Sequence record: PV357170.1
DNA length: 42,358 bases
From: a phage
Reading direction: 5' to 3' (one strand)
This document shows, piece by piece, positions 42-26,536 of the stretch. The notes beneath the pieces are model-generated. The model saw nothing but the letters and a program-made list of their open reading frames with translations, did not search any database and was not told the DNA's origin. Both the position numbers and the translations under genes were made by a program. How positions within the stretch are numbered: the stretch's first letter is position 1; each line of letters begins with the position of its first letter.

Positions 42-46
42 GCATA

Positions 47-244
47 TTACTCTTTAGTTTCTGTACCAGCTGCTGCGTCGGCTACTGCATCAACAGCTTT
101 GCGGGTACGCTTAGTAGCTTTGCGGCCAGATTCGACCGAACCTACTTGAATGTGCTTCGCTACCTCGGAGGCGGCTTTTACCGCCTCACGTTGAGCAGCG
201 TTGGCCTTGAGAGTCTCCAGACCGAACACGGCGATTACTGCCAT
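47..244 (-). CDS. hypothetical small protein (65 aa) between capsid gene and terminator
   Basis: ATG at 244 preceded by GGAGG with ~5-nt spacer immediately after the capsid stop; no recognisable motif. Confidence 0.45.
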   Translation of the reverse strand: MAVIAVFGLETLKANAAQREAVKAASEVAKHIQVGSVESGRKATKRTRKAVDAVADAAAGTETKE

Positions 245-255
245 TTAACCTCCAA

Positions 256-1275
256 TCAGGCTTTGGTGGTGAAGGTGAACTTAGTCACTGCGGCGGTATC
301 TGGACGACGCAGACCGATGTTGTACATCGCGTAGCAGTCCAGAACGTTGTTGAACTCGCGCTGGTCATCCCAGATACGAGAAGTGAACGGTTTAGCTTCT
401 ACCGTCACCAAGGTCTTGGACTTACTGAAAGTCACCATGCGGCACTTCGCATCATCCTCAGTGACCGTGTAAGCTGTACCCAGCGGGTGTGTACCAGCTT
501 CGGTCGGGAACTCAGTGCACTCTACTACCGGCACACCGTTCATCTTCACAACTCGGCGGTTCTTGTAACCGTCGTCGTTAGTTGCGCCGAACTCAAGATT
601 TAACAGCTTTGGATGCTCCAGCAGTCGGGAGTAGGTATCCACGTCCACCAGAGTAATCATATCCATAAGCGGAGTCTTACGCTTGATGAGTTCATCAATA
701 CCAGCCTTGTGAGCCAGGTTGATGTTCATGGCGTTGGCTTCCATCTCAGCCTGAGTCAGCTGCTTATCCGGAGTACTGCCCGCTACGAGGATAGAAGCAC
801 CTACTTCGATACCGTCGTTGAACGCAGGCTTCAGGTGCGCTGGTGCAACCCAGGAACGGCCTTTGATGAGCTGAATCAGGTGCGCCTGGTCGAAGGTCTC
901 CGCGAACTCGGAACCGTTGTTCTGACCCATCTCAGAGAGGAAGTCCGGACCAGTCCAGTCATCCTGGTAGTCGATTGGGTTACGGATGTACAGCACCGTA
1001 TCCACTACGATAATCATCTTATCGTTACGGACCGGAGTGCTATCCAGCGCTTCACCAGAACGACGACCCTTCACCGCAGAGGTATTCAGGCGGTCGATAC
1101 GGTAGGTGTTAGAGCCGCTGATAGAGCGCTGGCTAGAGAGACCCAGGAACAGCGCCTGGTACTGGAAGCGGGTATCCACTTCATTCTGGTACACTTCCAG
1201 GTGAATATCTACGTCGGACGCCGCTCCACCCCAATGCGGACGAGTGTCACCAGCTTTATAAATGGTATCTGCCAT
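256..1275 (-). CDS. major capsid protein (T7 gp10-like)
   Basis: 339-aa ORF directly downstream of the scaffold and portal genes; size and position typical of T7-type capsid protein; strong terminator follows. Confidence 0.8.
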   Translation of the reverse strand: MADTIYKAGDTRPHWGGAASDVDIHLEVYQNEVDTRFQYQALFLGLSSQRSISGSNTYRIDRLNTSAVKGRRSGEALDSTPVRNDKMIIVVDTVLYIRNPIDYQDDWTGPDFLSEMGQNNGSEFAETFDQAHLIQLIKGRSWVAPAHLKPAFNDGIEVGASILVAGSTPDKQLTQAEMEANAMNINLAHKAGIDELIKRKTPLMDMITLVDVDTYSRLLEHPKLLNLEFGATNDDGYKNRRVVKMNGVPVVECTEFPTEAGTHPLGTAYTVTEDDAKCRMVTFSKSKTLVTVEAKPFTSRIWDDQREFNNVLDCYAMYNIGLRRPDTAAVTKFTFTTKA

Positions 1276-4519: not shown

Positions 4520-6988
4520 TTAGCAAAAGAAGAATGGAGATTCAAGCACTTGTCGGATGTCCAAAGTACCGATTGCAGGCATCTCTAAATCTGTGAGGTC
4601 TGCCCCTGCTTCGGCAGCTGCCCGGGTAATATCTCCAAGCAGATCGTGCTCCTCGTACAACTTCACAAACTGTTCACGGATATGTCGGTGCAGGGCATCT
4701 ACATCAGCCGCGTGAGTAGCCATTGAGTCGTGAATCGGGACAATATCCAGACCTTCTGCAGCACAGAGCACCATCATGAGGTGTGTGCTATCTAGGCTAT
4801 GCACAAAGTTCGGAGCAATACCGGAGGCAGCCTTGCGCTTATTACAGGTCTTAAAGTCACGGTTGTGCACCAGCACGGCAGATAGGTTCATACAATCAAT
4901 ACGTACACGCACCTCCTCTCGCTGAGAGTACCGGTTCATCACCAGCCCGCCTAGAGGAGTCTTCCACTGCAGATGCTGGCTGGCAGGTACACGCCTAGCG
5001 AGGTTCTGTAGATACCCCATAGCTGCTGCTGCTGCCGGGTTAGCTTCCTCAATAGCGCTACGCATCCTAGGGGCCAGGTAGCAGGATAAGTTCCAGAGAC
5101 TGTGCGTGTCTGTTCCTTCATACCCCTCTTCACAAGCACCTGCAAAGATGTAGTCGCTGCAGCTGCGCACCGTGGCGCTGTAGAAGTAGGTCATGCTAGG
5201 ACGCTTGGTCATGCTTCGAGTGATTTCGTTCTCTCTCCAGTACGTGCTCTGGATAACGAAATCCTCTTTGTCCAGGTCCAGTATCACCTTCTCGTCCGTA
5301 CGGCGCTTCACGTCCATATACAGGTCCGCTTTCTTGTCGTTACCCTCCCAGTACAGGTTAGTCAGGCGCCCGCCTACAGGGTCTCTCAGGAGTGCTGAGA
5401 GGTGCTGTCCACCTGAGTTCGTAGCGTCCATAGCAACCGGAGTTCTGGAGATGTACTCTTCTGGGCACGGAGAATCCAGGGCAGCCACCAGGTCGAGCAC
5501 TGCTGCCAAGAAACACCACGGTGAATCGGCCTGCTTAAAAGCGTCCGAATCAAATAGATTCTCTGCAACTGAGCGGACAACTGCCATATTTTTATCAACC
5601 CAATCTGCGCGGTCTTCGAATAGGGTTTTGTCATAACCAAAGCAAGTGGCGACGTGCACTTTGAGCCAGAACAACCCTCTCTCTCCAAGAGGTTTACCTC
5701 TACCGAATTCCAGCAGAGCCTTCTGCAAATCAGAACCCTGCGGGTGCAATGAGGACTTGAAGTACAGGCGGTAGCGCCAGTCCACACAAGTCGGGAAGTA
5801 CAGGGCTTTCTCATCTTTGAATTCCTCTGCCATCTCCAACGTAGTCAGAAGGCTGCGTAGTTGCGATACACGCTTACGGTCAGCACTGTACCACAGGGAC
5901 ATACGCGTCTTCCACTCACCGAAGCGGTCCAGTTCCTCCTCGGTGTAGTTCTCTTTTGGCACACCATCCAAGTACCACTCCGGCTTCGGCTCCGGTATTG
6001 AGCGGGGCATACCTATCCCAATACCCAGGGCCCGTGCTTCTTGCACCAGTTCCAGTATGCGCTTATTAATGCGGTATGGGGTTTCCTGCGCCTTATTAAG
6101 CGCCTTTTTGATGCCGTCCGCGGCCTTGAATGCTTCTGCTACTTCGCGGAGACGCGCGCGGTCGATGTGCGAGTTATGATAGGTCCCGCGATTGTCGATG
6201 GGAGTAAGGTACCCACCATCCCACATAGTGGTGTGCTGTACTGGTGGCACCAGCATAGGAGGCTTCATGGTTACGGTATCGGCTGACTCCACCAGTTTCT
6301 GGAAGGCCTCCATAACGTCATCAGCCGGGTAGAGCATGCTCAGGTTCCCACTACCTGTCTTCCACTGGAACAGGCCCGTCTCAAACACTGCAGCACACAG
6401 CAGACGCCCTACGGAGATGTTCTGGGCATTGGTCCAAGGCTCGTGCCCATAGTGCACGTTCTCGGCACTGGCACGGAGCGTACGCAGTATGTGCGAAGGG
6501 GACTTCGTACGGCGCTCAGTGAGGTACTCGTACACACGGTCCATGTATGCAGGGGCTACGTTACGTAACTGCAGAGCCAGTAGCTCTGACTGCACATTCC
6601 TACCCAGTGCGGACATTACTGCTTGTGCAGTCTGACGGCGACTGGCGGACTCGCCTGGGGCAACACTGAACGCCTCAAACATTGTGCACAGGCTCAGAGT
6701 AGTTAGGACATCCAAGGGGACTAAGCGTAGGAATCGGCGGTACTTTCCACCGATACCCGGGGCTTTGACATTTCGCATTTCCTCAATGGCTGCAGAGGCC
6801 ACGTCGTACGCAGAGGTTAGCATGCGCTGAGTCATTGGCAGGTTCATAATCCCGCCATTCTGCAGAGCATCGGTAATCAATTTGCGAGCACGTTCAATGC
6901 CGCGAATCTTGTAGGTCTCTTCAAGCTCCAACTGGCGTTCCACCAGTGCTTCCTCTGGTACTACAACCGTATTCAGGGCGCTAATCAT
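4520..6988 (-). CDS. single-subunit DNA-directed RNA polymerase (T7 RNAP family)
   Basis: 822-aa ORF; C-terminal region ...PNFVHSLDSTHL...IHDSMATH... matches the conserved T7 RNAP catalytic/C-terminal motifs; AAGGAGA RBS upstream of ATG at 6988. Confidence 0.9.
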   Translation of the reverse strand: MISALNTVVVPEEALVERQLELEETYKIRGIERARKLITDALQNGGIMNLPMTQRMLTSAYDVASAAIEEMRNVKAPGIGGKYRRFLRLVPLDVLTTLSLCTMFEAFSVAPGESASRRQTAQAVMSALGRNVQSELLALQLRNVAPAYMDRVYEYLTERRTKSPSHILRTLRASAENVHYGHEPWTNAQNISVGRLLCAAVFETGLFQWKTGSGNLSMLYPADDVMEAFQKLVESADTVTMKPPMLVPPVQHTTMWDGGYLTPIDNRGTYHNSHIDRARLREVAEAFKAADGIKKALNKAQETPYRINKRILELVQEARALGIGIGMPRSIPEPKPEWYLDGVPKENYTEEELDRFGEWKTRMSLWYSADRKRVSQLRSLLTTLEMAEEFKDEKALYFPTCVDWRYRLYFKSSLHPQGSDLQKALLEFGRGKPLGERGLFWLKVHVATCFGYDKTLFEDRADWVDKNMAVVRSVAENLFDSDAFKQADSPWCFLAAVLDLVAALDSPCPEEYISRTPVAMDATNSGGQHLSALLRDPVGGRLTNLYWEGNDKKADLYMDVKRRTDEKVILDLDKEDFVIQSTYWRENEITRSMTKRPSMTYFYSATVRSCSDYIFAGACEEGYEGTDTHSLWNLSCYLAPRMRSAIEEANPAAAAAMGYLQNLARRVPASQHLQWKTPLGGLVMNRYSQREEVRVRIDCMNLSAVLVHNRDFKTCNKRKAASGIAPNFVHSLDSTHLMMVLCAAEGLDIVPIHDSMATHAADVDALHRHIREQFVKLYEEHDLLGDITRAAAEAGADLTDLEMPAIGTLDIRQVLESPFFFC

Positions 6989-13638: not shown

Positions 13639-15974
13639 TCTACTTTCTCCTTACTGTACATGCTTGTACCCATTTCAGCTTCCGCTGGGAACGGGACCTG
13701 CCCAATGATACCGTAGTTAGGCCATAGCTGGTGGATACGCTTAGGTGCGTCTTCCATGCACTGCTTAACTAACAGGCTCGCTTCTCTGCCTACCTCTGGA
13801 TTGGCACTGTCAAGATACAATGCATCGTGTACGTTCGTAATCAAGCACACCTGATTGTCGAACCAGTCACGTGCCAGCATCGCACGCAGAACCATACCGG
13901 CTGCGACTGCCATCAAGAAGAACGCCTCACCTTGACACCAGTAGTTAGCCATCTCGGTTTCCTTGTAGTCCATCACCTTCTGCTTGCGCTGGCCAGGGAC
14001 TACTTCCTTCCACTGCTCCTTCTGACGGAAGCTGTAGCGGGCACCTGCTGGGCTGGTCCAGGTACCAATTCGGTAGATACGATAACTACCATCATCAGCT
14101 TGCTCCCGGTAAATGCGTCCAGCTGCCCCGGTACGCTCTACTTCTTCCTTGACAACAGCGCGGAATCCTATGGTTGTTGGGAACAGCTTAGCCTCGTTAT
14201 CCAGGAACGCCTGTGCATACTCTACGGTACATCCGGTAGCAAAGGCGATACCCTTAGCCGTAGCACCATACTGCGCAGCAAAACTAGGGGGCTTAATGTC
14301 CGTACGCTGCTGCTTCCAGTACTTGTAGTCTGGCCCGTCAGCGTTATGGCACAGGTCGTACATCTCTTCGTAGGTTTTGTTCTCCTTAAATGCTAGTCGG
14401 TAACAGTGCATGTCCGTGCCGGACTGCAGTAGCCCCAGTAGTTTAAGGTCTCCAGTGTGAACACAAGACATAACCACTTCCAGGGCCGAATAGTCAACCT
14501 CAGTGATGCGACCAGATTCTCCGAAACGAGAGGTGAACATCTGTTTAACCCGGCTCGTCCCATCGCGCGGTAGATTCTGGAGATTCGGGTTAGAACCTGA
14601 CAGTCGCCCGGTGACGGTGGCACAGGTGTTAAGACGGTGGTGGATAATACCTGAACCATCAGGGTTCTGAGGTATGACGTATTGAAGCATGCCCGAGGTC
14701 TTTTTAACTGACCCATCTTCGTTGTACTCCGTTCGTAGATAGTAGGTTCCTGTGTCCTTCTCCAGAGCACCTAGCTCGTTCACCAATCGACAGAACTCGA
14801 ACCCGTGACGGGCTAGCGCTTCCATAGCATCAGTACTGGTGCTGTAGATTGGTGTCCCATCCTGCAGATTCCGGGCTTGCCTGAACTCTCCACGCTCAGC
14901 ATACTTCTCTCGGAGTACCTCGGGCAGTTCTTGGATGTTAACCAGGCCTGGGCAGAAGTAGAGGTCCTCTTCCCATTTGAGTTTCTCTTCCGCTGTATCT
15001 ATGCGGAAGACTTTTGGTAAGCCCTTGTTCTTCCCGGCCTTGTATGTAGTCGCCCCAGGGGGAGCGGGCATATCATCCACAGCAACCCAAGTGTCGCCTA
15101 CTTGCCAGTAGTCCGCCTTGACGTATTGCGGCGGGTCGTAGGGCACCTTCTTGCGGTACTTGATAGGGCCGCCATACACCAGCGCAGACATATGAAAGTC
15201 AGAACCGAAGTTGAAATCTAGCGTCTCCGGCAAGTCCTTGGGGATATACTGCTGCAGCTCCTTCTTAATCTCCAGTATACGCTGTTCCTGCTCTTCTTGG
15301 TTCTTGCGAGCAATCGGCATATTCACGAACAGACCGAACCATTCGCAGTAGGCCCAGGCCAGTAAGGCATCCATGCGCTCCCATACGTACTGCATTTGGT
15401 TGCGCTCTGCAAAGATACCGCACTGGCCGTAGAAGCACAGGGCCGTGTTCGGTATATCCCCGTTAACTAGGTAGTCGTGCAATAGTATAGGGTCGATCTG
15501 GGAGGTTAATACACCTTGCTCCCATAGAATCTTAACACCGTCTACTTTGTGCGTACCGCCGTACTTAGGAGCTGTCTCGTCCAGTGACGGATACATACTC
15601 TGAAAGTCCGAGGCGATGTACTCAGAATGCATCGTACAGAATACGCGACCTCCCCGCTTTAGGAAGGCCTCAAACTCGGCGCGCGCAAAGGTTAGGAACC
15701 AGCTAATCTCATATGCGGCGTTGTGGGCCACAATCAGCCAACAGTCAGCTGGTATTGGGAGCCATTCTGATACAGGTGCCGCTTCAAAGTGCGCGCGACT
15801 GTTATACCGTACACTCTCTACGGGGCCTACTTCTACCGTACCGTCATCGTGCGTGCGGTCAATACGCCACGCTGATTCTACGATGTAATTATCCGGACAG
15901 TACGGGGAAGCAACACTACCGTAATATGGGTGATTTTGCGTCTCATAATCCGTTATCAGGATGCTTCTGCTCAT
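13635..15974 (-). CDS. family A DNA polymerase with 3'-5' exonuclease domain
   Basis: Exo I ITDYETQ at N-terminus; Pol motif A DYSALEV, motif B KPPSFAAQYG, motif C NVHDALYLD; GGGGAGGG RBS. Confidence 0.9.
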   Translation of the reverse strand: MSRSILITDYETQNHPYYGSVASPYCPDNYIVESAWRIDRTHDDGTVEVGPVESVRYNSRAHFEAAPVSEWLPIPADCWLIVAHNAAYEISWFLTFARAEFEAFLKRGGRVFCTMHSEYIASDFQSMYPSLDETAPKYGGTHKVDGVKILWEQGVLTSQIDPILLHDYLVNGDIPNTALCFYGQCGIFAERNQMQYVWERMDALLAWAYCEWFGLFVNMPIARKNQEEQEQRILEIKKELQQYIPKDLPETLDFNFGSDFHMSALVYGGPIKYRKKVPYDPPQYVKADYWQVGDTWVAVDDMPAPPGATTYKAGKNKGLPKVFRIDTAEEKLKWEEDLYFCPGLVNIQELPEVLREKYAERGEFRQARNLQDGTPIYSTSTDAMEALARHGFEFCRLVNELGALEKDTGTYYLRTEYNEDGSVKKTSGMLQYVIPQNPDGSGIIHHRLNTCATVTGRLSGSNPNLQNLPRDGTSRVKQMFTSRFGESGRITEVDYSALEVVMSCVHTGDLKLLGLLQSGTDMHCYRLAFKENKTYEEMYDLCHNADGPDYKYWKQQRTDIKPPSFAAQYGATAKGIAFATGCTVEYAQAFLDNEAKLFPTTIGFRAVVKEEVERTGAAGRIYREQADDGSYRIYRIGTWTSPAGARYSFRQKEQWKEVVPGQRKQKVMDYKETEMANYWCQGEAFFLMAVAAGMVLRAMLARDWFDNQVCLITNVHDALYLDSANPEVGREASLLVKQCMEDAPKRIHQLWPNYGIIGQVPFPAEAEMGTSMYSKEKVE

Positions 15975-16392
15975 TCCATACCCTCCCCTTTATGATATTA
16001 GATATGTATCCTTGACTTATCCCGAAGCGTCTCGCTATAGATACCTGGGTCTCACCGCCAGCATATGCTTCTCGTATACTGTGCACGTCTTCTGGGGTAA
16101 GTCTGGCAGCAGGGTTGCGGCTGCCCAGCAAATTACGCGCACCTTTATTTCGGTCCTGCATATTATCACTAGAAGTCCCTAGTAGCAGGTGCTCCGGATT
16201 TATGCACCGAGGATTGTCACACGAATGCCGGACTACAAGTCCCGCGATATCACTCAGCTTCAAGTTGTGGGCTATACAATACGCTTTGCGGTGGCTTCCA
16301 GTTGTCTCTCCATCAAATCTGGAGCGGCCATATCCAGCGCACTTTCCTCGGCAAGTGCTTCCCTTCTGCCCGTGGTCGATACAATCTGTCAT
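15943..16392 (-). CDS. HNH homing endonuclease (paralog 3), overlapping the DNA polymerase start
   Basis: HSCDNPRCINPEHL core plus C-terminal helix-turn-helix-like IARRFGISQGYISNI; ATG at 16392 (track ORF starts at a TTG at 16398); 3' end overlaps the first ~10 codons of the polymerase gene. Confidence 0.8.
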   Translation of the reverse strand: MTDCIDHGQKGSTCRGKCAGYGRSRFDGETTGSHRKAYCIAHNLKLSDIAGLVVRHSCDNPRCINPEHLLLGTSSDNMQDRNKGARNLLGSRNPAARLTPEDVHSIREAYAGGETQVSIARRFGISQGYISNIIKGRVWNEQKHPDNGL

Positions 16393-16697
16393 CTCCAATT
16401 AATCCTCCGCGCCTTATTGACAGCCAAGTGCACAATCAGCCGGCTGCTAATTAGCACGGGCCGTATGCTGAAAGTACCCACAGATGCAGCGTACGCCTTA
16501 ATTACCTCTTCGTCGAGATAGTTAATGTCGGACGGTTTAAGCATTCTGCCTTCTCCCACACTGGATGCACATACCACCTATAAATGTCAACCTTGCCCCG
16601 CAGTGCTTGCACTCCCAGTCTGTCAGTATAAACATAGTATATCTCCATCCATCATCTGTGTACCTACATAGCGCCCTCTAGGAAGGCGCTAGGGAAG

Positions 16698-17978
16698 TCA
16701 CTTGTTAATCTGCCCTTCGTTAAATCGGCATCTACCTGGGTCGAATGCTACCTCGAATTGCAGTAGCGATTCCTTACCCGATAGCGCCATCTTATTCTTC
16801 GGCGTACTGATACCACGAATGTTTTGCATATGCGGCTGCTCGTTCCTGTCCAAGCACCCCATCATAATTGCTAAATCCAAAGCACCTTGCACACCAATCT
16901 TACTCTGCTTCATTGCTGTGAGCGGTGGAAACAGCAGGTTATAACCTTCGAGTGAAAGCTGCATAGTACCAATAACGGCACAGTCATTCTCACACCCCAG
17001 GATTCGCAGCTCCTGCCACTTCGCCTCTAGGTTCTGGTGTTCGCTCTCCATCGTACCACCACGGATGTTAGCTACCATATCTATGATGATTACCGCCGGG
17101 CGCATCTCCTCCATTAGCGTAGAGATTTGAGCCATAGTAAGAGAGTGTGCCGCCTTGATACGGATGCGGTCAGCCCTACCTACTTTCTCCAAATAGGCCG
17201 GCACAAACTCTTGCTTACTGTGCCTGTCCTTAATCTCAGCCAGAGTCCAATGCAGCGCCGCTTGGTATACCCTCGGCACAGTGCGCGTCGCCGGGCCTTC
17301 ATTAACCAGCCATAGAATCGGACGATCCCCGTACACCTCCGGTTGCTGCTGCATCTGCTTAGCAAAGTCCACAGCAATAGCAGCGAGTAGGCTAGTTTTA
17401 CCAGAATCAACAGGGGCAGCCACAGCAATACAATCACCACCGCGAAGCCCGCGGATGCTATTAGAGAGTTGCTCAAATACGCCCAGTTTAAGACCACCAC
17501 TTTCATCAGTCGCGGCAAGTATCTCATCAACACTTCCGCTCTCCCACTCTAGTAGCGAATCATGAACAGCAGCACCATCCCCGTACTTGCGCTGGAGGTG
17601 CTTCATCTCCAGTAGATAATCAACCTCCTCACCGTCTTGGTAGCGCTGCGTGAGCGCTGCAACCTCTCCGCTGTATGCCAACTCATTCAGGGTCTGCACA
17701 ATCCCCACCACAGAATCCTGTGGTACGGCTTGTACTCCCCGCATAAGCTCATCCATAATCACCCGCTCTTCACGGGATAGATGCCCGGCCCGGAGGTTGA
17801 GCATACTCTGCATCGCATCCCACTGCACCTCTTGGTGCTCTGGGTACGTGTTCCAGTACAGCCCTACCCAGTCCAGCAGGTTCGAGGTGTCCGGCGCAAG
17901 CATAGACTTGGGTATCTGCTCTCGCAGTCGGTTCCAGACCTTCTGCGTGCACATTGCACGCACAACTATTAAGTCCAA
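16698..17978 (-). CDS. replicative DNA helicase (DnaB / T7 gp4 helicase-domain-like)
   Basis: Walker A AAPVDSGKTSLL and Walker B-like VIIIDMV; 426 aa; adjacent to primase gene. Confidence 0.8.
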   Translation of the reverse strand: MDLIVVRAMCTQKVWNRLREQIPKSMLAPDTSNLLDWVGLYWNTYPEHQEVQWDAMQSMLNLRAGHLSREERVIMDELMRGVQAVPQDSVVGIVQTLNELAYSGEVAALTQRYQDGEEVDYLLEMKHLQRKYGDGAAVHDSLLEWESGSVDEILAATDESGGLKLGVFEQLSNSIRGLRGGDCIAVAAPVDSGKTSLLAAIAVDFAKQMQQQPEVYGDRPILWLVNEGPATRTVPRVYQAALHWTLAEIKDRHSKQEFVPAYLEKVGRADRIRIKAAHSLTMAQISTLMEEMRPAVIIIDMVANIRGGTMESEHQNLEAKWQELRILGCENDCAVIGTMQLSLEGYNLLFPPLTAMKQSKIGVQGALDLAIMMGCLDRNEQPHMQNIRGISTPKNKMALSGKESLLQFEVAFDPGRCRFNEGQINK

Positions 17979-18760
17979 GTTAATGCCTCCAGTATCTCTT
18001 TGATTTCTGCGTCCTTAGGATCCGCAGCGAAGTAGTGTTCTCGGCACTGCATGAACGGGCGCAGTGCCCGGCGTGTTGCCGCTACCCCAGCATGTCCTGC
18101 CGGGTCATTGTCCAACATTAGAATCACTTCCGGGCGATTCTGAATCAGCCAGGCCCTTAGCTGCGTGGGCAAGCGTGTACCCAGCATAGCTATAGCCTGC
18201 ACGTTCAACGCACTGTAGCTCGTAACTGCGTGCTGTATCTTCAGGGCTGAGAGTAAGTCCTCTGTGAGCACGACCTTTAGAGGAGCGCCCGCAGCTACAG
18301 CCGGTGCTACGGCAGGTTCCGCGACAGCGAAAGCTATTGGCTGGCCGTACATTACCCACTTCGGTTGCTGCCGAGCATGTACTGCACGGCCCAGAGCAGC
18401 GCTTCCGACACGGAAGATTATCCGCTGTTTCTCTTTGCTCCATTCTGCATCCCCCACCATTTCAGGCATGATTCCCTTTGAAGCAAGGAATCCGTAAATA
18501 AAACTCTGCGTTTCTGCAGGCGCTTGGCTAATGCAAATTGCATCTGCAGGTGCAGAGGGCTGCACCCTCGGCTCTTCCTGTAACTGTATGCGCTGGTACT
18601 GCTTGCGCTCCTTGCCTACCTGTTTGCAGCGGTGGCAATAGTATTCCCAGGCATCCGGGTTATTATAGAGCACCCCGGCGGAGTCCCTGCCGCAGCACCG
18701 AAAGCGTGCCCTCTGCCCCACGGCCAGGCGCTTGCACGCTCTAAGCCAGGGCTGGTCCAT
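17969..18760 (-). CDS. DNA primase (zinc-ribbon plus TOPRIM)
   Basis: Cys4 cluster RFRCCGRD...YYCHRC followed by TOPRIM motifs VVLTEDLLSA and LMLDNDPAG. Confidence 0.75.
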   Translation of the reverse strand: MDQPWLRACKRLAVGQRARFRCCGRDSAGVLYNNPDAWEYYCHRCKQVGKERKQYQRIQLQEEPRVQPSAPADAICISQAPAETQSFIYGFLASKGIMPEMVGDAEWSKEKQRIIFRVGSAALGRAVHARQQPKWVMYGQPIAFAVAEPAVAPAVAAGAPLKVVLTEDLLSALKIQHAVTSYSALNVQAIAMLGTRLPTQLRAWLIQNRPEVILMLDNDPAGHAGVAATRRALRPFMQCREHYFAADPKDAEIKEILEALTWT

Positions 18761-18963
18761 TACTTAATCTCGATTCTGTTAGCGTATACTATTCCACACA
18801 ATAAAATGTCTCTTTCGGGTACATCCACCTTCCGTCCATCGTCCAGACGGTATATGTAGCCACCCTCTACCTTTATAACCCAAAAGCTGCATGATCCCCA
18901 AGTGAACGGAATGCCAACCACAATACTCTTAGGCGGCATTTTGTACGTGATAATTTTATGCAT
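18760..18963 (-). CDS. hypothetical protein (67 aa)
   Basis: ORF with stop/start overlap onto the primase gene; no motif recognised. Confidence 0.4.
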   Translation of the reverse strand: MHKIITYKMPPKSIVVGIPFTWGSCSFWVIKVEGGYIYRLDDGRKVDVPERDILLCGIVYANRIEIK

Positions 18964-19429
18964 TTGCTTTCCCCTTACGTTTGATATCCATAGCCATGCG
19001 ACGAAGGTCGTGTGCTAGTTGCAGGGCTGCATCAGGACTCATATTAATACCAATCTCCTGCTCTGCCCGGGTGCTGTTCTTTTTAGGAACTATTCCGATG
19101 TAGAGTAGGTTCTCATCAGTCCAACTGCATCTTTCTAGGACTAGCCGCTGGTCGTTGCCGCGGTCGCGCTTGGAGTTCATGTAAGCCACACTAGCTGGAA
19201 CCGGTGGCAGCTCGTCGTCCGGCTCTTGGTACAGCTCAAAGTTAGATGCATACCACGGGTACCAGTCACCATCGATAGTACAATTGTTCAACCGTAACCA
19301 GTGACCGCCTGAGGATATAGCTGTAACTGTGTAGTAATCAAAATCCCCTTGGCGCTTCTTAAACGACGAGCTGTCGTCGGGTGATTTGCGTACTACTTTA
19401 TCACCAACTTTAAACTTAGACATAATCAA
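18956..19429 (-). CDS. hypothetical protein (157 aa)
   Basis: ORF between peptidase-like gene and primase; no motif recognised. Confidence 0.5.
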   Translation of the reverse strand: MIMSKFKVGDKVVRKSPDDSSSFKKRQGDFDYYTVTAISSGGHWLRLNNCTIDGDWYPWYASNFELYQEPDDELPPVPASVAYMNSKRDRGNDQRLVLERCSWTDENLLYIGIVPKKNSTRAEQEIGINMSPDAALQLAHDLRRMAMDIKRKGKANA

Positions 19430-20460
19430 CCCTCCACAATATTATCGTATCCACCCCAGTCCTCTACAACTCGGGTGCCTAGTTCAATCAGCTCTTCTTT
19501 GAAGCCATAATCAGAATACACCATGATGTATTCCGCCGCTCTTGCTGGGTTATCTAGCACCCAGCTAATCAGTTGCTGCTTAGAAAGTTGTGACACCTCC
19601 TTAAACGCTGCTAGTAAATGCGGATCTTCCGCAGGGGGAACATCCAGAGGCATCGTTAGGGGATGCGTATAGGCAGATAACCACGCATCCGGTTCCACTA
19701 CTTTAGGATCACGCTCAATCGGCAGGTGCTTGAATGTACCCGGACTAAGTACGCGCTCCAGTACGCTACCAAGAATGCTAAGGTCCAGCACCTCATCTGG
19801 TGTATGTTCGTGCATGTACCCTACACCTACGTTAGTGCATTCGGGGATAATCTGCATGAACTCAGCAGAGTCAGTGTATACCCCTTTTTGTAAGTGCGCA
19901 TCCGTTCGTCCTAGTCGGGCCGCCAGCTCCTTTGCGAACGTATCAGAACAGCAACGCTGGTATCGTTGATGCGTAATGATCCCATCACCTCGGCGGTCAA
20001 AACTAATCATTGCCTTGACACCAGTCCAGAAGCCAGTGTCGTCCTTGGCGGATGCACTGCTGCCTTCACAGCCTACCTCTTCATCCACGAAGAAGCAGTA
20101 ACGTCCATGTACTCCCCGCTTAATCATCTCCAGCATCAAGTAGATACCAGCACCACAGTCTGCACCTAGACAATCCGCCACCTGTGGATTCCGCAGGAAC
20201 ATTACACCCTTGTTAGTGGTTGCAATGTCTGGCGCAGCACTACCAGGCCGGGCCACTGTGTCGAGGTGCGATGTAAATGCTACATCACTCTGTTCAGAGC
20301 CACCAATAAGCACAAAGTAGTTACCATGAGCATCCCTAACGTAGTGCTCTGCACCAGCAAGAGCGCTACTAAGTAGAGGTTCAAACCATTTGGTACTACC
20401 CCAGCTAGGTCGGTGCGTTGTTAGTATCTTTGTCAGTAGTTTAAGGTCAACACCATACAT
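19426..20460 (-). CDS. Zn-dependent M20/M28/M42-type metallopeptidase-like protein
   Basis: Ordered candidate metal ligands: TSHLDTV (HxD), GADCGAG (D), FFVDEEVG (EE), YMHEHTPDE (H); family cannot be resolved by eye. Confidence 0.5.
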   Translation of the reverse strand: MYGVDLKLLTKILTTHRPSWGSTKWFEPLLSSALAGAEHYVRDAHGNYFVLIGGSEQSDVAFTSHLDTVARPGSAAPDIATTNKGVMFLRNPQVADCLGADCGAGIYLMLEMIKRGVHGRYCFFVDEEVGCEGSSASAKDDTGFWTGVKAMISFDRRGDGIITHQRYQRCCSDTFAKELAARLGRTDAHLQKGVYTDSAEFMQIIPECTNVGVGYMHEHTPDEVLDLSILGSVLERVLSPGTFKHLPIERDPKVVEPDAWLSAYTHPLTMPLDVPPAEDPHLLAAFKEVSQLSKQQLISWVLDNPARAAEYIMVYSDYGFKEELIELGTRVVEDWGGYDNIVEG

Positions 20461-22160
20461 TAAGCTGCCTCCTGTTCTGCTTTAGCTTCTTTGTCTTCTT
20501 CGGCTTCTTCATTACCGAGGTAGGGCTCATCCAATATGGACGCAGCATACTCCGTGAGAATCATACCGTGCACTGGGTGCTCTTCGGCATGCACACTCAG
20601 AACATTGTACCCTTGTACGCACGCCATTGGCTCTTCATCATGCACTGTACCCTCTACAGCACAATGTTCTACGTCCCGGTCAAGTACCCAAGAGTCGTGG
20701 TAGTCAGACCATGAGCAATCCCATGATGGGTACACTATGCTGCGGCCCACTACCTGTACGTAAGTATCACCGATGCAGTGCGGGCATACATAACCACCGT
20801 CACAAGCTACGTACATGTCATCCTCGTCGAAACGTCCCCCACACTCTGCACAAGCACTGCGACCATCATCAATCCAAATGTACCCAGCAGCGTCCTGCGC
20901 TTCGTAGTCGTAGCAGTCGCAGATAACGAATGCATCCCCGCCCAATTCATCCACCCCGTCTTGGCTCCCATCCAAGTACGGCATAAGCACGGCACCTTCA
21001 TTTTCAGGGTGCGGAATACGCGCCAGTAGTACGCCATCTAAGCAGTCTGTATTGCACTCATATCCGTTAGCACGTAGGATGGCATCCGCAGCATCCCCAT
21101 ATGCACGGACATATTCATTGGTTTCGATGTTAACGATAGCACGGGCGTGCACTTCAAAGTCGTCACCAAAAAGTTCCCCAGTATACTGGATGAACAGGCG
21201 CAGATTATTGTCCGGCAAGCCGTGACTAGTCGTAGCGTATACACGCACCGGGCTATCTTCGAAGTTGTATCCGGTCATGCAGCTACGAGGACCATTCTCG
21301 TATGCGTTGTACCACTCCCGCTCGGTCTTACAAAGATATGTAGTAGGCTCCACATTCATAGCTTTGAGGTCTTCAATACATTCCCTGAAGTCTACACCGC
21401 TGCCGTAATAGTTAGCGAGCCACTTACCTACTCGCATCTCTACACAGCGATACTCAGTAACAGCGGCGTAGTCTTTGTGTAATCGCGGCTGCCCCAGCAT
21501 TACTACAGGCTCACCGTTGCGGAAGCCGAAACCTAGTGGGATTGCAAATCTAGATACTACAAATCCGTGCAACTGCATAAGCAAGGTTGCTGCCCAGTAA
21601 TCCCCATCAATTTCACTGTACCCACGAAGGTATTTGCGCCGGAGGGAGTACGTAGGTGCTAGCATAATCTCTTTGAATAACTCTATAGCCTGCTTGTGCA
21701 CCTTGTATCCGGTAAAGTATTGGACCGCTTCTACTACGCGTTCTGTAACTACGTCAGGGCCATCATAGAAGTTTCTGCTAGATAAACCGAATGCTTGGTC
21801 GCAGGTACCTGCACAGCCAAAGAGGTTATGCAGGAGAGTGTCACTAACATCAACCGTGCCCAGCGGCCCAGTATATACACTCAACTCCTCTCCTGCAGCT
21901 GTATAGTTGCCGAGTGCTACATGGTACCCCGGCAGCACCCTTGACAACATATAAAAGCCATTCAAAAGCGCACGGGTTTTGTTACTTTGCACGCGCGCAC
22001 AGCCTTGAGTTGATAGGTAGGGAAGTTGGCACCAGTAATCCCCGGAAGAGTACATACTATCCTTCAGTGGAAGAGCATTGGCCCCTTCTGGAAATTTGAT
22101 GGTCCAACCCTCGTAGGCAGGTACTTTTACGTCTACAGTTACTTTATTAGTCTCTTGCAT
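20460..22160 (-). CDS. large early protein of unknown function with C-terminal Cys-rich (zinc-ribbon-like) region
   Basis: 566 aa from the ATG at 22160 (GGAGAC RBS); C-terminal CAECGG...CPHC cluster and acidic tail; the track ORF extends upstream to 22454 without an RBS. Confidence 0.55.
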   Translation of the reverse strand: MQETNKVTVDVKVPAYEGWTIKFPEGANALPLKDSMYSSGDYWCQLPYLSTQGCARVQSNKTRALLNGFYMLSRVLPGYHVALGNYTAAGEELSVYTGPLGTVDVSDTLLHNLFGCAGTCDQAFGLSSRNFYDGPDVVTERVVEAVQYFTGYKVHKQAIELFKEIMLAPTYSLRRKYLRGYSEIDGDYWAATLLMQLHGFVVSRFAIPLGFGFRNGEPVVMLGQPRLHKDYAAVTEYRCVEMRVGKWLANYYGSGVDFRECIEDLKAMNVEPTTYLCKTEREWYNAYENGPRSCMTGYNFEDSPVRVYATTSHGLPDNNLRLFIQYTGELFGDDFEVHARAIVNIETNEYVRAYGDAADAILRANGYECNTDCLDGVLLARIPHPENEGAVLMPYLDGSQDGVDELGGDAFVICDCYDYEAQDAAGYIWIDDGRSACAECGGRFDEDDMYVACDGGYVCPHCIGDTYVQVVGRSIVYPSWDCSWSDYHDSWVLDRDVEHCAVEGTVHDEEPMACVQGYNVLSVHAEEHPVHGMILTEYAASILDEPYLGNEEAEEDKEAKAEQEAA

Positions 22161-22206
22161 TTTCTTTGTCTCCGGTGTTAGTAGTATCTCATCATGCATT
22201 AAAAGT

Positions 22207-22551
22207 TCAGCGTGCATACCACGCTGAGAGTTGTCGCTGCTTATAATACGAGCGCACAGCCGCCCTAAATCTTGTATAGGCTCCACGATACCCGTACCGT
22301 AGGAGTGCTGCAACCACATCGAACGAAATGTGCTCTTGCAATCTGCGCGCGGCAGACTCTGTATACTCTCGATAGGTTGTGAGAACAGTGCCAATACCCT
22401 CTTTTCTAACGCGGAGTAATCGGCGCTCGACTGGCACGATTTGCTTGAGTTCATCTGGAACCTCTTTGAATATTTCCCACGAGCACCCGCACTTGCCCTG
22501 CGTTTCTAGCAAGCGCCAGCACAGTAGCGCTGTTTCGTCTACTGTAAGCAT
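22207..22551 (-). CDS. hypothetical early protein (114 aa)
   Basis: ATG at 22551 with AAGGA RBS placed right after the upstream gene stop; track ORF starts earlier. Confidence 0.45.
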   Translation of the reverse strand: MLTVDETALLCWRLLETQGKCGCSWEIFKEVPDELKQIVPVERRLLRVRKEGIGTVLTTYREYTESAARRLQEHISFDVVAALLRYGYRGAYTRFRAAVRSYYKQRQLSAWYAR

Positions 22552-22553
22552 AC

Positions 22554-22757
22554 TTAATCCTTGAATACTACATTGCGAGCCACGAGTGTGCTCTTGTCGC
22601 TGGATACTATACCGCCAACTGTGTGGCTTGACTGCAACCACCGCTGCAGAGGTTTGTTATAGTGTTCAGCGTGCTCGTTCAGCGTACCATACAGCGGCAC
22701 CCGGTACAGTAACCCGTTCGGGCGCTTGTACAAGTCATATGCAACTAATTCATTCAT
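22554..22757 (-). CDS. hypothetical early protein (67 aa)
   Basis: ORF with ATGA overlap to the upstream gene; no motif recognised. Confidence 0.45.
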   Translation of the reverse strand: MNELVAYDLYKRPNGLLYRVPLYGTLNEHAEHYNKPLQRWLQSSHTVGGIVSSDKSTLVARNVVFKD

Positions 22758-22939
22758 ATTACACCTCGCACATTAAAACGGTGACAGTAACCGCGCAGGG
22801 TCATACCCAGGCGCTTTGCTTGTTTCTCATAGTGCTGGCGCAGCGCTGCTTTTGCGCTGTATTCACGCGCCAGCCCGTCGATTGTTGGTTGCTGCTTACG
22901 CATCAGCAGCACCTCTGGATTCTTTCCGTACATACCCAC
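22754..22939 (-). CDS. hypothetical early protein (61 aa)
   Basis: Short basic ORF in the early block. Confidence 0.4.
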   Translation of the reverse strand: MGMYGKNPEVLLMRKQQPTIDGLAREYSAKAALRQHYEKQAKRLGMTLRGYCHRFNVRGVI

Positions 22940-23072
22940 CTCAGATACCGTTGTTGCTTACACCGTCCACGGTCAGAGTTACAGCGATGTTGGGTTCTTG
23001 CTCTCGCACCGCCTTAAGTAGGCGAATACCTAACGCCTTGCAACCGCCCTCTGGATTTCAAAGAGGTCATAC

Positions 23073-23204
23073 TCAGGGCGTGGTTGCCGCTCTTGATGCT
23101 GCCCCCTGTTGAACGTGTACAGTGCAATAGGGCACTGGGTTATTCACATCGTTGCCTAGCACCAGCATGGCGCTGGTAACAATGATATTGACAACACTAG
23201 TCAT
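23073..23204 (-). CDS. hypothetical micro-ORF (43 aa; below the ORF-track cutoff)
   Basis: Hand translation MTSVVNIIVTSAMLVLGNDVNNPVPYCTVHVQQGAASRAATTP; GGAGA RBS 7 nt upstream; ATG overlaps the stop of the 73-aa ORF. Confidence 0.25.
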   Translation of the reverse strand: MTSVVNIIVTSAMLVLGNDVNNPVPYCTVHVQQGAASRAATTP

Positions 23205-23418
23205 AAAGTTGTCTCCAGTCGGTAATAATACCGAGATTCACGGCATCCAGCAAAGTACGCGCCGCTGCTTCGGTATGGGTGTCTACGAGATCTAAAGGGG
23301 ATTCCTGATTGGTGTCGCGGTCAGAGAATATCATCACAGTATAGTTATACTCTGCATGCACTTGATTGCACCATACGGGCCAAAGTACATGCCCCGGACA
23401 GATTAGCTTTGCTTTCAT
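23197..23418 (-). CDS. hypothetical early protein (73 aa)
   Basis: ORF in early block; no motif recognised. Confidence 0.45.
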   Translation of the reverse strand: MKAKLICPGHVLWPVWCNQVHAEYNYTVMIFSDRDTNQESPLDLVDTHTEAAARTLLDAVNLGIITDWRQLYD

Positions 23419-23606
23419 TTGAAACCTCGTTGTTAACGGTATTCACGTAGCGCCCCGCAGGACGCTATAGGCTTACCATTATACGTATTCTCCCAATCCC
23501 TCATAGTGCCACCTGTTATGGCGGCCCCGGGTTGGCACATCAAAGGCGTCAGAGTCGTTAGCTGCCGGAATCAATGCCCACCACTTGATAGCTTGAATCT
23601 TATAAA

Positions 23607-24182
23607 TCATGCCGCTACCTTCAAAGTTGCATCCAGTACAGCGCGCACATCCACGCCCTGACTGATAAGCATAGATACCAAATCAGAGTCGCTCACCCCA
23701 GTTTCTTTAGCCTTCTTGATGGCGTTTTTAACGCGCCCCAGAGCTTGTAGACGCATTGCATCGGCATCAAGGGCATCATTCTTCACTTGCTCTGCTTCAG
23801 CAGCGTACAGGGCCATACAGGCGCTATAGAAGTTGTTTACAATAACCTCACGGCCTTGCTTGTCAGCTTGTTTATAATCCAGACGCATACTGTCCAGCTC
23901 AATACCCAACTTCTCAGCCGACGCATAGCACTTCTTCGCAGCGAACTCATAGCGCTGAGTCTCTTTGTTGAACTTGATAGGCAGGAGCGTGCGCAGCACC
24001 ATATCGAAATCAGCGGCATCACTGCGCTGCATATCCACAGCCCAAGAAACGTTGCTACTAATCAGGCCGTGAAACAGTGCACTGATAGTGATGTTGCGTT
24101 TTGCTTCCACTACATCGCCCAACGCCTTGCGGATACTACCCGCAGCGGTTAACTTGAATACTTTAGCGGTTGCATTGGTCAT
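23607..24182 (-). CDS. hypothetical early protein (191 aa)
   Basis: ATG at 24182 with GAGGTG RBS (the track start at 24194 lacks an RBS); first sizeable gene after the non-coding region. Confidence 0.55.
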   Translation of the reverse strand: MTNATAKVFKLTAAGSIRKALGDVVEAKRNITISALFHGLISSNVSWAVDMQRSDAADFDMVLRTLLPIKFNKETQRYEFAAKKCYASAEKLGIELDSMRLDYKQADKQGREVIVNNFYSACMALYAAEAEQVKNDALDADAMRLQALGRVKNAIKKAKETGVSDSDLVSMLISQGVDVRAVLDATLKVAA

Positions 24183-24260
24183 GATACACCTCATCGATTG
24201 TTGATTGTTTACCTAACGAATTACTTCACATAGCACCCCATAGGATGCTATAGGCTGTAA

Positions 24261-24458
24261 TTAATACCCAAATTGGGAGTTAACAGTAGGCCACCCGTTG
24301 GGTTGCTTGCTACTACCTCTTTGTTTTTGCTTCCCTCGTACCCTAGTAGCGTCGGTTAACCCTTGTTTACTAGGTTTAACTAATAACCTCATATCATCCG
24401 TCGGGTTAGTTGACAACTCCCAATTACGCTTTAATGCTAAACGCTTTGCTTTACGCAT
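24261..24458 (-). CDS. possible first early gene: small basic protein (65 aa)
   Basis: ATG at 24458 with AAGGGG 7 nt upstream; lies inside otherwise non-coding DNA, so may be spurious. Confidence 0.25.
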   Translation of the reverse strand: MRKAKRLALKRNWELSTNPTDDMRLLVKPSKQGLTDATRVRGKQKQRGSSKQPNGWPTVNSQFGY

Positions 24459-25100
24459 AAACTTGCCCCTTAGAGAATATAATCTAGCGCAGCCTCATTA
24501 CTACTGCGCTATGTTATACACTCTTTGCGGGATACACTCCGCGCCTTGTTCCCTCGATTCAGAGGAGCGTGCTGCTCACGCCTCGGCAGTAAGGTTTGCC
24601 TCAGAACCCCGGTGATAACGTCCGGCACGTTTACTCTTTATGACTGATTATCTAGGATTGGTCGTCATCGTACCAGTCAAGGTACTGGGCCTCCCCGCAA
24701 ACCAGCTTACTACGTTGTTCGCTATCTAAGTTACTAGGTGAATCTGAACTTGTCAAGCGTTATTTCTTACTTTTAAGCCGTCCGGTTTATGTGTCCGGTC
24801 ACCTGTAGCGGCTTGCTACGTGGAGGTGTCCTAGTTAGCGGCCTGTCTTCAACTATCCTGCCGTACTACTTGGATTCAATCTAGCTTATGTTCTTCGCGG
24901 TGTCAACTCTTTTATCGAGTATCTAACCCTTCACACCATCTAGCTTTAATCCGGTGGAGTCTCCCGACTCTACCCCGGTTAGCGCCTCAGTGCCTCCCGG
25001 TGATTGAACTATAACGCTAACAAACCAAAATAAGCAAGTACTTTTTGCAATTATTTATCTCTAAGAGCAAAAAGGGTAAGCAAGGCAATGGTTTAGTCAA
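24459..25100 (-). promoter_or_regulatory. probable early promoter / leader region (no individual promoter pinpointed)
   Basis: Non-coding DNA directly upstream of the first early genes; only weak -35/-10 candidates found by eye (e.g. TTGACA near 24751-24756 with a poor -10). Confidence 0.3.
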
Positions 25101-25110
25101 TGCTTCCATT

Positions 25111-25714
25111 CTAGGGATAGCTCTAGGGATAGCCCACTACTAGCCAATGCTAACCAATACAATCTAACGCTACACAAAGCAGAACGTAGTGCCCGTACGA
25201 AGTGAAAGGGCACGTAGTGATGCGGTGACTGTGTTGGTAATGCTTACTCCCTACGGTCGTAATATAGGGCATTACTAGGGGATACTAGTGAGTAGTAGTA
25301 AGTAGTATGTATCTAGTGCCCTAAAACCCTCCTACTCGTGTAACATCATTTCAAATTAGCTTTCGAATGAAAGTAAGGGTGAAGGGATAGCTCTAGGGAT
25401 AGCGACAGAGTCCGGCAGAGTGTAGCGGATAGTGGCGGGTAGTGGATGTGCGCCCTAGTGGGGAGCGCGCAGCGTAACATATAATCGGCGCAATGTAAAG
25501 CACTAGAGATAACCTTAGAGATAGCTCTAGAGATAGCATATAGACGCACTAGCAGCGCACTGGGCGGCCCACTACGGCCCACTAGGTGTGGCACTATGGC
25601 TGCACAAAATAAGCAAGGCAGAGCGCACCCCTATGGCCCACAGGGAGCGCACAGGAAGCGCCCTAGTGAACGCACAGGCATAGCCGTAGGGTAGCACTAG
25701 CGATAGCCCTAGCG
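25111..25714. repeat. array of short direct repeats: 11-bp motif CTAG(R)GATA(G/A)C in 8 or more copies, including a 21-bp unit present three times
   Basis: agggatagctctagggatagc at ~25113-25133 and ~25383-25403 (identical) and the G-to-A variant agagatagctctagagatagc at ~25517-25537; further copies at ~25503-25513 and ~25697-25707; tandem ggcccactac/ggcccactag at ~25566-25585. Confidence 0.75.
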
Positions 25715-25809
25715 CAGCGCAGAGAGCCGCTGAGAGCGCCATAGAGGCACTGGCAGGCCCCAGGCTGCCCGCGGCCATCTAGACGTCCAGACATCCAGCC
25801 ACCTAGATA

Positions 25810-25819
25810 CCCCCCCCCC
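25810..25819. repeat. C10 homopolymer tract
   Basis: Uninterrupted run of ten C in the non-coding region, about 230 bp from a G11 run on the same strand. Confidence 0.8.
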
Positions 25820-26026
25820 TAAATTCTCCCAGGACACCCCCTATGGGGGCAATTGGGCGCGTTGAGGGTGAGGGACCCTGTCGGGTAAGTATAACAAATT
25901 TCGAGTTCAGATATACACCTGCGCAGGGGGAGAAGTCCTTGTGATGTTCCAGGCGCTTCTCTTGTACCCACTTGCAGATAACTTCGTATATGCACCTGGA
26001 ATAGTACTTATAAATACTAACCTACA

Positions 26027-26063
26027 AAAGGAAAAGCCCCCAACTACAGGGGGGGGGGGCTTT
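26027..26063 (-). terminator. Rho-independent terminator ending the late transcription unit
   Basis: Minus-strand RNA: GCCCCC...GGGGGC GC hairpin (includes the C/G homopolymer) followed by UUUUCCUUUU, directly after the stop of the last late ORF. Confidence 0.5.
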
Positions 26064-26065
26064 GT

Positions 26066-26536
26066 TTAAAACAATAAGTATTCCACTGTAGATGGAAGTT
26101 GGACACCTACTGCTACAGGCCTGTTTACTGTAATTACGCCAGCAGCGCAGGAAGCAGTATCGTTTACAGTAGCTGGATTATCTACCCATGGGCGAACGCT
26201 ATACGACTTAGTTGTATCTGCATTAGGTATAGTTAATGTTCCTGAAGTGGCCCCACTAGCAACAGCAAGTGCACCTAAGTCTACATTACCGGCAGAGTGT
26301 ACTAATACTCCGGCAGGACTAAGGCTTACAACAGTAACCCCAGAACCAATATCAGCAGGTAATGAGTAAGCACGCTGTGTCACTTTGTCATAGATGACTT
26401 TGTAACCAGCAAGCAGAGCACCCACTGAGAAGTAAACAACCTCTGATTGCTTAACTCCGAAGTGTCGAGCCACTGCTTGTTTATTAGTTAAGATTCCCGT
26501 TGAACCTTTACCATCTTGTGAGAACATTTCGTTCAT
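26066..26536 (-). CDS. hypothetical late protein (156 aa), Gly/Ala/Val/Thr-rich, encoded after the tailspike
   Basis: GAGG RBS upstream of the ATG at 26536; bracketed by a hairpin upstream and a terminator downstream; beta-rich composition resembles fibre or receptor-binding accessory proteins. Confidence 0.5.
   Translation of the reverse strand: MNEMFSQDGKGSTGILTNKQAVARHFGVKQSEVVYFSVGALLAGYKVIYDKVTQRAYSLPADIGSGVTVVSLSPAGVLVHSAGNVDLGALAVASGATSGTLTIPNADTTKSYSVRPWVDNPATVNDTASCAAGVITVNRPVAVGVQLPSTVEYLLF

Follow-up and report, generated by a model that had tools for sequence, protein, structure and literature searches.

A gene for a predicted peptidase has been on record in KP34-like phages since the original KP34 paper of 2011, in which KP34p11 was listed as a 'putative peptidase' (PMC3082699). 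The KP34-like genus has KP34p11 among its core genes (PMC4411677), and in the PhiM1-like phages the counterpart of this gene is the only early-region open reading frame (ORF) with a putative function (IPR007484, M28; PMC6115819). Many sequence records likewise annotate the gene as 'peptidase' or as 'peptidase M28-domain containing/Zn-dependent exopeptidase superfamily protein', and in the literature that we searched we found genome-annotation papers only, with no functional study of the peptidase, of its homologue gp56 in Thermus phage P23-45 or of the gene that precedes it. Here we describe the member of this family carried by the phage sequence PV357170.1, whose 42,358 nucleotides (nt) we refer to as the window, together with its upstream neighbour, which encodes a 664-amino-acid Cys-rich protein that we call the partner. 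The assignment as a peptidase is correct; since it has been in the literature as an annotation from 2011 onwards, that finding alone changes little, and the protein is an uncharacterised member of a known clan. What is new is the two-gene module, which is spread over unrelated phage groups, includes a partner family without a Pfam model and is undescribed in the literature searched.

The window is the genome of a Drulisvirus (KP34-like) phage. Between positions 17000 and 24000 it shares 94% identity with Klebsiella phage KPV811 and 93% with Escherichia phage Minorna, both of which belong to Drulisvirus (Autographiviridae, Slopekvirinae). Its peptidase gene belongs to the same family as KP34p11 of Drulisvirus, with 78-99% identity and a matching location after the early genes and before the primase gene, and it is 93-99% identical to genes annotated 'peptidase' in Escherichia phage AV102 and Shigella phage SFN6B. 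The PhiM1_10-type copy of the Phimunavirus Peat1 is about 40% identical to the window peptidase. At the level of annotation we see no difference between the window gene and KP34p11 or PhiM1_10, for which the papers give a predicted function only and do not describe the link with the upstream gene.

A sequence-only reading of the window had proposed a 344-codon ORF at 19426-20460 without assigning a strand. These limits proved exact (344 codons and a stop), and the coding sequence, stop included, occupies 19426..20460 of the minus strand, the plus-strand frame over the same interval being full of stops. The reading had also placed the gene directly downstream of one for a large Cys-rich protein, and this we recovered as the 664-amino-acid partner ORF (20460..22454, minus strand; phrog_6980, function unassigned in PHROGs) with 23 Cys (3.5%). 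The TAA stop of the partner shares one base with the ATG of the peptidase, forming a TAATG overlap (20458-20462, minus strand), and an AGGAGG ribosome-binding site (20468..20473, minus strand) sits 7 nt upstream of that ATG, within the end of the partner gene; the Minorna record annotates a ribosome-binding site at the equivalent place. The overlap of start and stop suggests that translation of the peptidase is coupled to that of the partner.

The protein had been labelled an M20/M28-like zinc peptidase, and at the family level this is borne out, since sequence profiles and predicted fold both describe a clan MH (M28/M20/M42) catalytic domain. None of the profile classifications assigned a non-peptidase fold. 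Pfam Peptidase_M28 (PF04389) scored 22.7 bits against a curated gathering cut-off of 21.3 (E 8.9e-5), whereas M20 (PF01546) and M42 (PF05343) stayed below theirs (17.4 versus 24.6 bits and 13.5 versus 23.2 bits, respectively) and the NCBIfam PepT-like model was far below its own (14.9 versus 274). NCBIfam and PADLOC scans of the peptidase, the partner and the downstream gene gave nothing useful. The ORF matched phrog_4191 'peptidase' at E 2.3e-143, and among 73 aligned homologues searched at E <= 0.01, M28 was found in 54, M20 in nine and M42 in five, with a best M28 value of 1.1e-9. When a profile of the family was compared with PDB sequences, the PepT-like proteins 3gb0 (3.7e-15) and 3rza (6e-15) and the M42 enzyme TET1 (2e-7) were recovered with their HxD, LGADD, EE and VGYxxxHT motifs in alignment. 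These profile matches and the ordered motifs of the ORF lie far beyond chance. An AlphaFold model built on the 73 sequences had a mean predicted local distance difference test score (pLDDT) of 83.6, with 10-residue block means of 79-97 over residues 1-255, most of them at least 90, and a Foldseek search of the PDB with this model returned M42 and M20 enzymes only.

The candidate metal ligands noticed in the sequence-only reading can be read in the proposed order as SH65LD67T, LGAD101CGAG, VDE127E128VG, ISFD155RRG and YMHEH219T, all on the minus strand. The codons of H65-L66-D67 (20260..20268), an HxD motif with a metal-ligand His and a second-shell Asp, align with FTSHMDTV of 3gb0, and the profile alignment to the same protein places D101 of the LGAD motif (20158..20160) as the presumed bridging ligand and E127-E128 (20077..20082) as the presumed general base and metal ligand. 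D155 (19996..19998), followed by R156, is presumably the fourth ligand, since it stands at the end of a beta-strand as in the ligand order of PepT and M28 enzymes. H219 (19804..19806), in a VGYxxEHT motif aligned with VGYEEIHT of 3gb0 and 3rza, would be the fifth. The sequence therefore follows the M28 ligand order of His, Asp, Glu, Asp and His; the ligand Glu is directly preceded by the catalytic Glu, and the first His is followed two positions later by an Asp.

Loss of these ligands in homologues had been named as an observation that would speak against a peptidase, and we did not see it. In a set of 206 non-redundant homologues, drawn from a protein search and from the fetched loci and reaching down to about 31% identity, D101, E127, E128 and H219 were conserved in all 206, D155 was invariant as well, and H65 and D67 were present in 205, the remaining sequence having a gap. 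With every ligand invariant, the protein clearly appears to be under selection as an active catalyst, and we rejected a degenerate, inactive homologue on the same ground. Seven further residues particular to the family (R156, Q165, S172, D197, N210, Y215 and E223) are also invariant, which suggests a single specific substrate common to phages of very different hosts, and C131, C170, C171 and C208 are mostly conserved. As R156 is invariant and lies beside the ligand D155, the conserved substrate is probably carboxylate-bearing. R156 presumably occupies the position of Met180 in the Aeromonas/Vibrio proteolyticus aminopeptidase (AAP), which we take to line its hydrophobic S1 pocket.

By analogy, the phage enzyme would work like the exopeptidases of the M28, M42 and PepT types. 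Its catalytic domain (residues 1-255; 19696..20460, minus strand) is predicted to be a single alpha/beta MH-clan domain without a lid or a PDZ-like insert, as expected of M28. In peptidase T and PepT-like enzymes (M20B; 3gb0, 3rza, 1fno and 1vix), a lid/dimerisation domain of about 100 residues lies between the fourth ligand and the last His. The phage enzyme shares the catalytic-domain fold of M20 but has only 64 residues from D155 to H219, so that this domain is absent. The M42 TET aminopeptidases (PhTET1, 2cf4; PepA, 3kl9; YpdE-like, 1ylo) form 12-mers and have a PDZ-like domain inserted after the first His and ahead of the bridging Asp; in the phage enzyme 35 residues separate H65 and D101, and this insert is absent. 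Given the missing M20 lid, the model describes a catalytic-domain-only enzyme, M28-like in layout. The single-domain M28 aminopeptidases AAP (1rtq) and SGAP of Streptomyces griseus (1cp7) are secreted and have pro-regions, whereas the phage protein, whose N-terminus has no hydrophobic stretch and which shows no signal peptide or transmembrane segment, is predicted to be cytoplasmic. It also bears a flexible, lineage-specific C-terminal helical tail (residues 256-344; 19429..19695, minus strand; helices predicted, pLDDT 45-78) that is conserved in closer relatives only, other lineages having different tails; it is possibly a docking element.

The protein thus belongs to clan MH and, by Pfam score and architecture, marginally to M28. 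It belongs neither to M20 nor to M42, since the scores are under the cut-offs and the defining inserted domains are absent, although the cores of those families are its closest structures. Of the earlier label, the clan and, marginally, M28 are retained, while M20 is not. Because clan MH also holds non-peptide amidohydrolases, 'peptidase' is best taken as a family name with a predicted activity.

The evidence for a module comes from the company that the gene keeps. Co-conservation of the gene pair had been suggested as a check, and the outcome was strongly positive. We searched hidden Markov models (HMMs) of both conserved cores against the ORFs of all fetched loci, which contain 99 peptidase genes, and found the partner within 6 kb in 76 of them. 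It lies directly upstream on the same strand in 62/99 loci, where its stop is a median of 15 nt away from the first peptidase residue covered by the alignment, and downstream in 14/99, mostly jumbo-phage contigs in which a form of about 325 amino acids without a zinc ribbon is found about 450 nt away; in two of the 99 it is on the opposite strand. Directly upstream homologues of the 664-amino-acid protein occur in three other groups, namely in Vibrio Maculvirus DE18 (E 4e-42), as gp08 of Pectobacterium phage Peat1 (5e-9) and in Rhizobium phage Pasto (1e-8). Counts of records per host genus are equal for peptidase and partner (Klebsiella 232/232, Vibrio 42/42, Escherichia 10/10 and Shigella 4/4).

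The reverse test gave the same picture. Five contig groups were picked by way of distant relatives of the partner, and in each of them a homologue of the peptidase follows directly, in four at E 1e-43 to 1e-77 and in the fifth as a recognisable N-terminal fragment at a contig end. Since the short jumbo-phage forms of the partner retain SCM, Arg and PYLD, the iterated partner profile had not drifted. In P23-45 (EU100883.1), the peptidase homologue gp56, annotated 'metal-dependent hydrolase', has no adjacent partner. A homologue of the partner core is nevertheless encoded 30 kb from it: the hypothetical protein gp1 (P23p1; 42-1142, minus strand) matched the un-iterated HMM at E 2.8e-12 and retains RSCMTG and YPYVD. 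That both genes are present although they are not neighbours is the best indication of a functional connection, and we consider it likely that peptidase and partner are linked as a module. From these matches, the module would span KP34-like podophages, jumbo phages and a Thermus siphophage.

The arrangement of the pair varies in the metagenomic contigs. Some IMG/VR contigs of 55-476 kb (L038/L054, L045/L058 and L078) carry two peptidase copies, and in L078 two peptidase genes are accompanied by three to four partner paralogues in a row; the module has therefore been duplicated in some jumbo phages. In the jumbo-phage form represented by L006 and L008, a gene of about 70 amino acids on the opposite strand always stands between the peptidase and the downstream short partner. 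The neighbours differ, with a gene for S-adenosylmethionine (AdoMet) decarboxylase upstream in L006 and one for a CoaE-like kinase downstream of the partner in L008.

The partner belongs to a sizeable family, an exhaustive phmmer search yielding 374 clusters at 50% identity. Its conserved core (residues ~335-530; 20865..21452, minus strand) has the pattern SCM ... R ... PYxD, in which S391, C392, R438 and D495 are invariant and Y385, Y406, Y452, P492 and Y493 nearly so, and these motifs are kept in the homologues from jumbo phages and the Thermus phage. The core is followed by a zinc-ribbon-like CxxC ... CxxC (C535, C538, C557 and C560; 20775..20852, minus strand) that is nearly invariant in the alignment and absent from the short jumbo-phage form. 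Pfam gave no match for 45 members at E <= 0.01 and none for 10 isolated core domains at E <= 10, and the source names of ten distant clusters were all empty or 'hypothetical protein'. Zinc-finger matches of the partner profile to PDB sequences were weak (best RNF31, E 0.02), and we set them aside as noise from the Cys pattern. The AlphaFold model of the partner has a mean pLDDT of 82, with residues 1-103 below 50 except for residues 12-22 (block mean 65). As this N-terminal part is modelled as mostly disordered and many homologues (566-589 amino acids) begin near residue 99, the true start may be M99 at position 22160. A 144-amino-acid ORF (22207-22641, minus strand, different frame) overlaps the N-terminal part of the partner gene, and a gene annotated in Minorna overlaps in the corresponding place.

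The peptidase family itself was found by tblastn in 379 phage records, with hosts that include Klebsiella (232), Pectobacterium (51), Vibrio (42), Escherichia (10), Thermus (10) and Bacillus (10), plus others. Metagenomic relatives occur on contigs of about 40 kb that resemble podophage genomes and on contigs of 100-476 kb that resemble those of jumbo phages, the latter also encoding PhoH, Dam, NUDIX and AdoMet decarboxylase proteins. A pattern scan of representative genomes from 185,579 bacterial and archaeal species returned about nine true relatives, mostly on short contigs of metagenome-assembled genomes and three of them with the partner adjacent; the next-best matches were ordinary cellular PepT-like M20 proteins at E ~1e-17. 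From these surveys, the family is essentially phage-borne.

Taken as a whole, we lean towards an active MH hydrolase that works as a module with the partner. The parts of this reading differ in strength, and we regard it as very probable that the ORF product is a catalytically competent di-metal, probably di-zinc, hydrolase of clan MH, while the case for a peptide or protein N-terminus as the substrate falls somewhat short of even. With roles assigned by homology, H65, D101 (bridging), E128, D155 and H219 would hold two metal ions and E127 would serve as general base on a metal-bound water; the activated water would attack a terminal amide bond, in an exopeptidase or a deacylase chemistry, and the likeliest substrates would be a peptide or protein, attacked at its N-terminus, or an amide resembling an acyl-amino acid. 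Co-occurrence suggests that the two proteins would constitute a phage-specific two-component module, in which the partner may supply the substrate, the specificity or the function that the lid domain has in M20 enzymes.

Several observations weigh against this interpretation. The Pfam M28 score exceeds its cut-off only marginally, the closest structural relatives of the peptidase are two-domain enzymes, and its C-terminal tail is poorly modelled. In 21 of the 99 loci there is no partner in the available flank, some of these loci being at contig ends, and the enzyme may work alone in some phages. The literature searched yields no biochemical or genetic data on any family member. The truncated catalytic domain of DapE (PDB 4h2k) is reportedly inactive alone, the other domain being said to contribute to catalysis; a lid-less enzyme might therefore need a partner, for which DapE offers a lead, or use another class of substrate.

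A more specific form of the module, which we put forward tentatively and regard as doubtful, is that a phage-exclusive pair, consisting of the lid-less MH hydrolase and a partner with a new, possibly GNAT-like transferase fold that may or may not be accompanied by a zinc ribbon, edits a universal host target early in infection. Such editing would include, for example, the trimming and re-modifying of protein N-termini, creating or removing degradation signals, or the removal or installation of acyl or aminoacyl marks that serve host defence or metabolism.

Among the alternatives, the one that survives best is a pathway of two steps. The peptidase would be a non-peptide amidohydrolase or deacylase similar to ArgE, DapE or CPG2 and its partner a GNAT-like transferase for acyl or aminoacyl groups; the target of the pair would be a small molecule, a nucleotide or a DNA base, or the side chain of a protein, treated in an add-then-trim or a writer/eraser fashion. 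Tight gene linkage is what such a pathway would lead one to expect, and R156, invariant and adjacent to the metal site, could serve to hold a carboxylate. However, the similarity of the partner to the GNAT fold is weak, no GNAT match appeared in Pfam even at E <= 10, and the coenzyme A-binding motif Q/RxxGxG/A is not visible in the partner consensus. The M20 deacylases, moreover, rely on the lid domain that is absent here, and the sequence profiles favour M28, whose members are mostly aminopeptidases. We therefore consider this pathway unlikely.

We find it quite improbable that the protein is a stand-alone aminopeptidase of broad specificity that recycles host peptides for phage protein synthesis next to an unrelated gene. 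The family does resemble general exopeptidases of the M28, M42 and PepT types, and some phages have no detected partner in the contig stretch examined, but hosts already own several such peptidases, seven further invariant residues around the motifs point to a single, specific substrate, and the partner co-occurs with the enzyme across podophages, jumbo phages and a Thermus siphophage, even with 30 kb between their genes. A role in lysis, as a cell-wall peptidase, or in virion maturation, as a protease, is scarcely credible and was rejected: zinc peptidases for lysis are common in phages and one record names the upstream partner 'putative structural protein', but the fold is MH and not one known for the zinc peptidases of lysis (M15/M23) or for head-maturation proteases, none of which is among the structure matches listed, export signals and transmembrane segments are lacking, and the gene is located ahead of the replication genes and well away from those for structure and lysis.

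The wider setting of the locus is that of a genome which looks complete and circularly permuted and is read here as its reverse complement. All genes of the window are on the minus strand; early ones start at around 26 kb and proceed towards lower positions, and late ones pass from position 1 round to 42358 and then descend as far as 26066. In the order of transcription, small early genes are followed by the Cys-rich gene, the peptidase, the primase, the helicase and the DNA polymerase, and later by a T7-like phage RNA polymerase (4520-6988, minus strand; Pfam RNA_pol, 2.9e-90). The placement of the peptidase among early genes in the sequence-only reading is thus reasonable, since the gene precedes those for primase, helicase, DNA polymerase and phage RNA polymerase. 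Lying upstream of the latter, it is presumably an early/middle gene that is first transcribed by the host polymerase. A promoter and terminator scan of 18500-26200 found sites no more numerous than in shuffled sequence and is uninformative on the transcription unit.

Downstream of the peptidase lies a gene for a protein of 155 amino acids (18956..19423, minus strand), whose ATG is 2 nt past the peptidase stop codon (TGATTATG); its longest listed ORF, starting from a TTG at 19429, overlaps that stop by 4 nt. The gene is conserved in Drulisvirus and Phimunavirus only (E 4e-22 to gp10 of the Pectobacterium Phimunavirus Peat1), and no similarity to it was found in a more distant locus. The protein matches only positions 205-357 of the 455-position phrog_4317 profile, a hint of longer or fused relatives elsewhere. 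Further along, a 151-amino-acid HNH homing-endonuclease ORF (15943-16398, minus strand; Pfam HNH_3, 3.3e-7, with a helix-turn-helix/sigma-70 region 4-like C-terminus) separates the helicase gene from that for DNA polymerase, whose start it overlaps. It looks like a mobile insertion, as Minorna has two small hypothetical genes there instead. Upstream of the early genes, the non-coding stretch 25113-25707 contains six copies of a 21-nt unit built from a 12-nt repeat (AGGGATAGCTCT AGGGATAGC). A tandem array at 25493-25537 holds three of the copies, and the units may serve as sites close to the genome end or in regulation.

Drulisvirus phages of Klebsiella and Escherichia coli are among those evaluated for phage therapy in the papers that we retrieved, and the peptidase and its partner offer a two-gene target for experiments on the effects that many virulent phages have on the host cytoplasm before replication. 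Editing of protein termini or acyl marks by the two proteins, if true, would constitute a new type of host-takeover or counter-defence mechanism.

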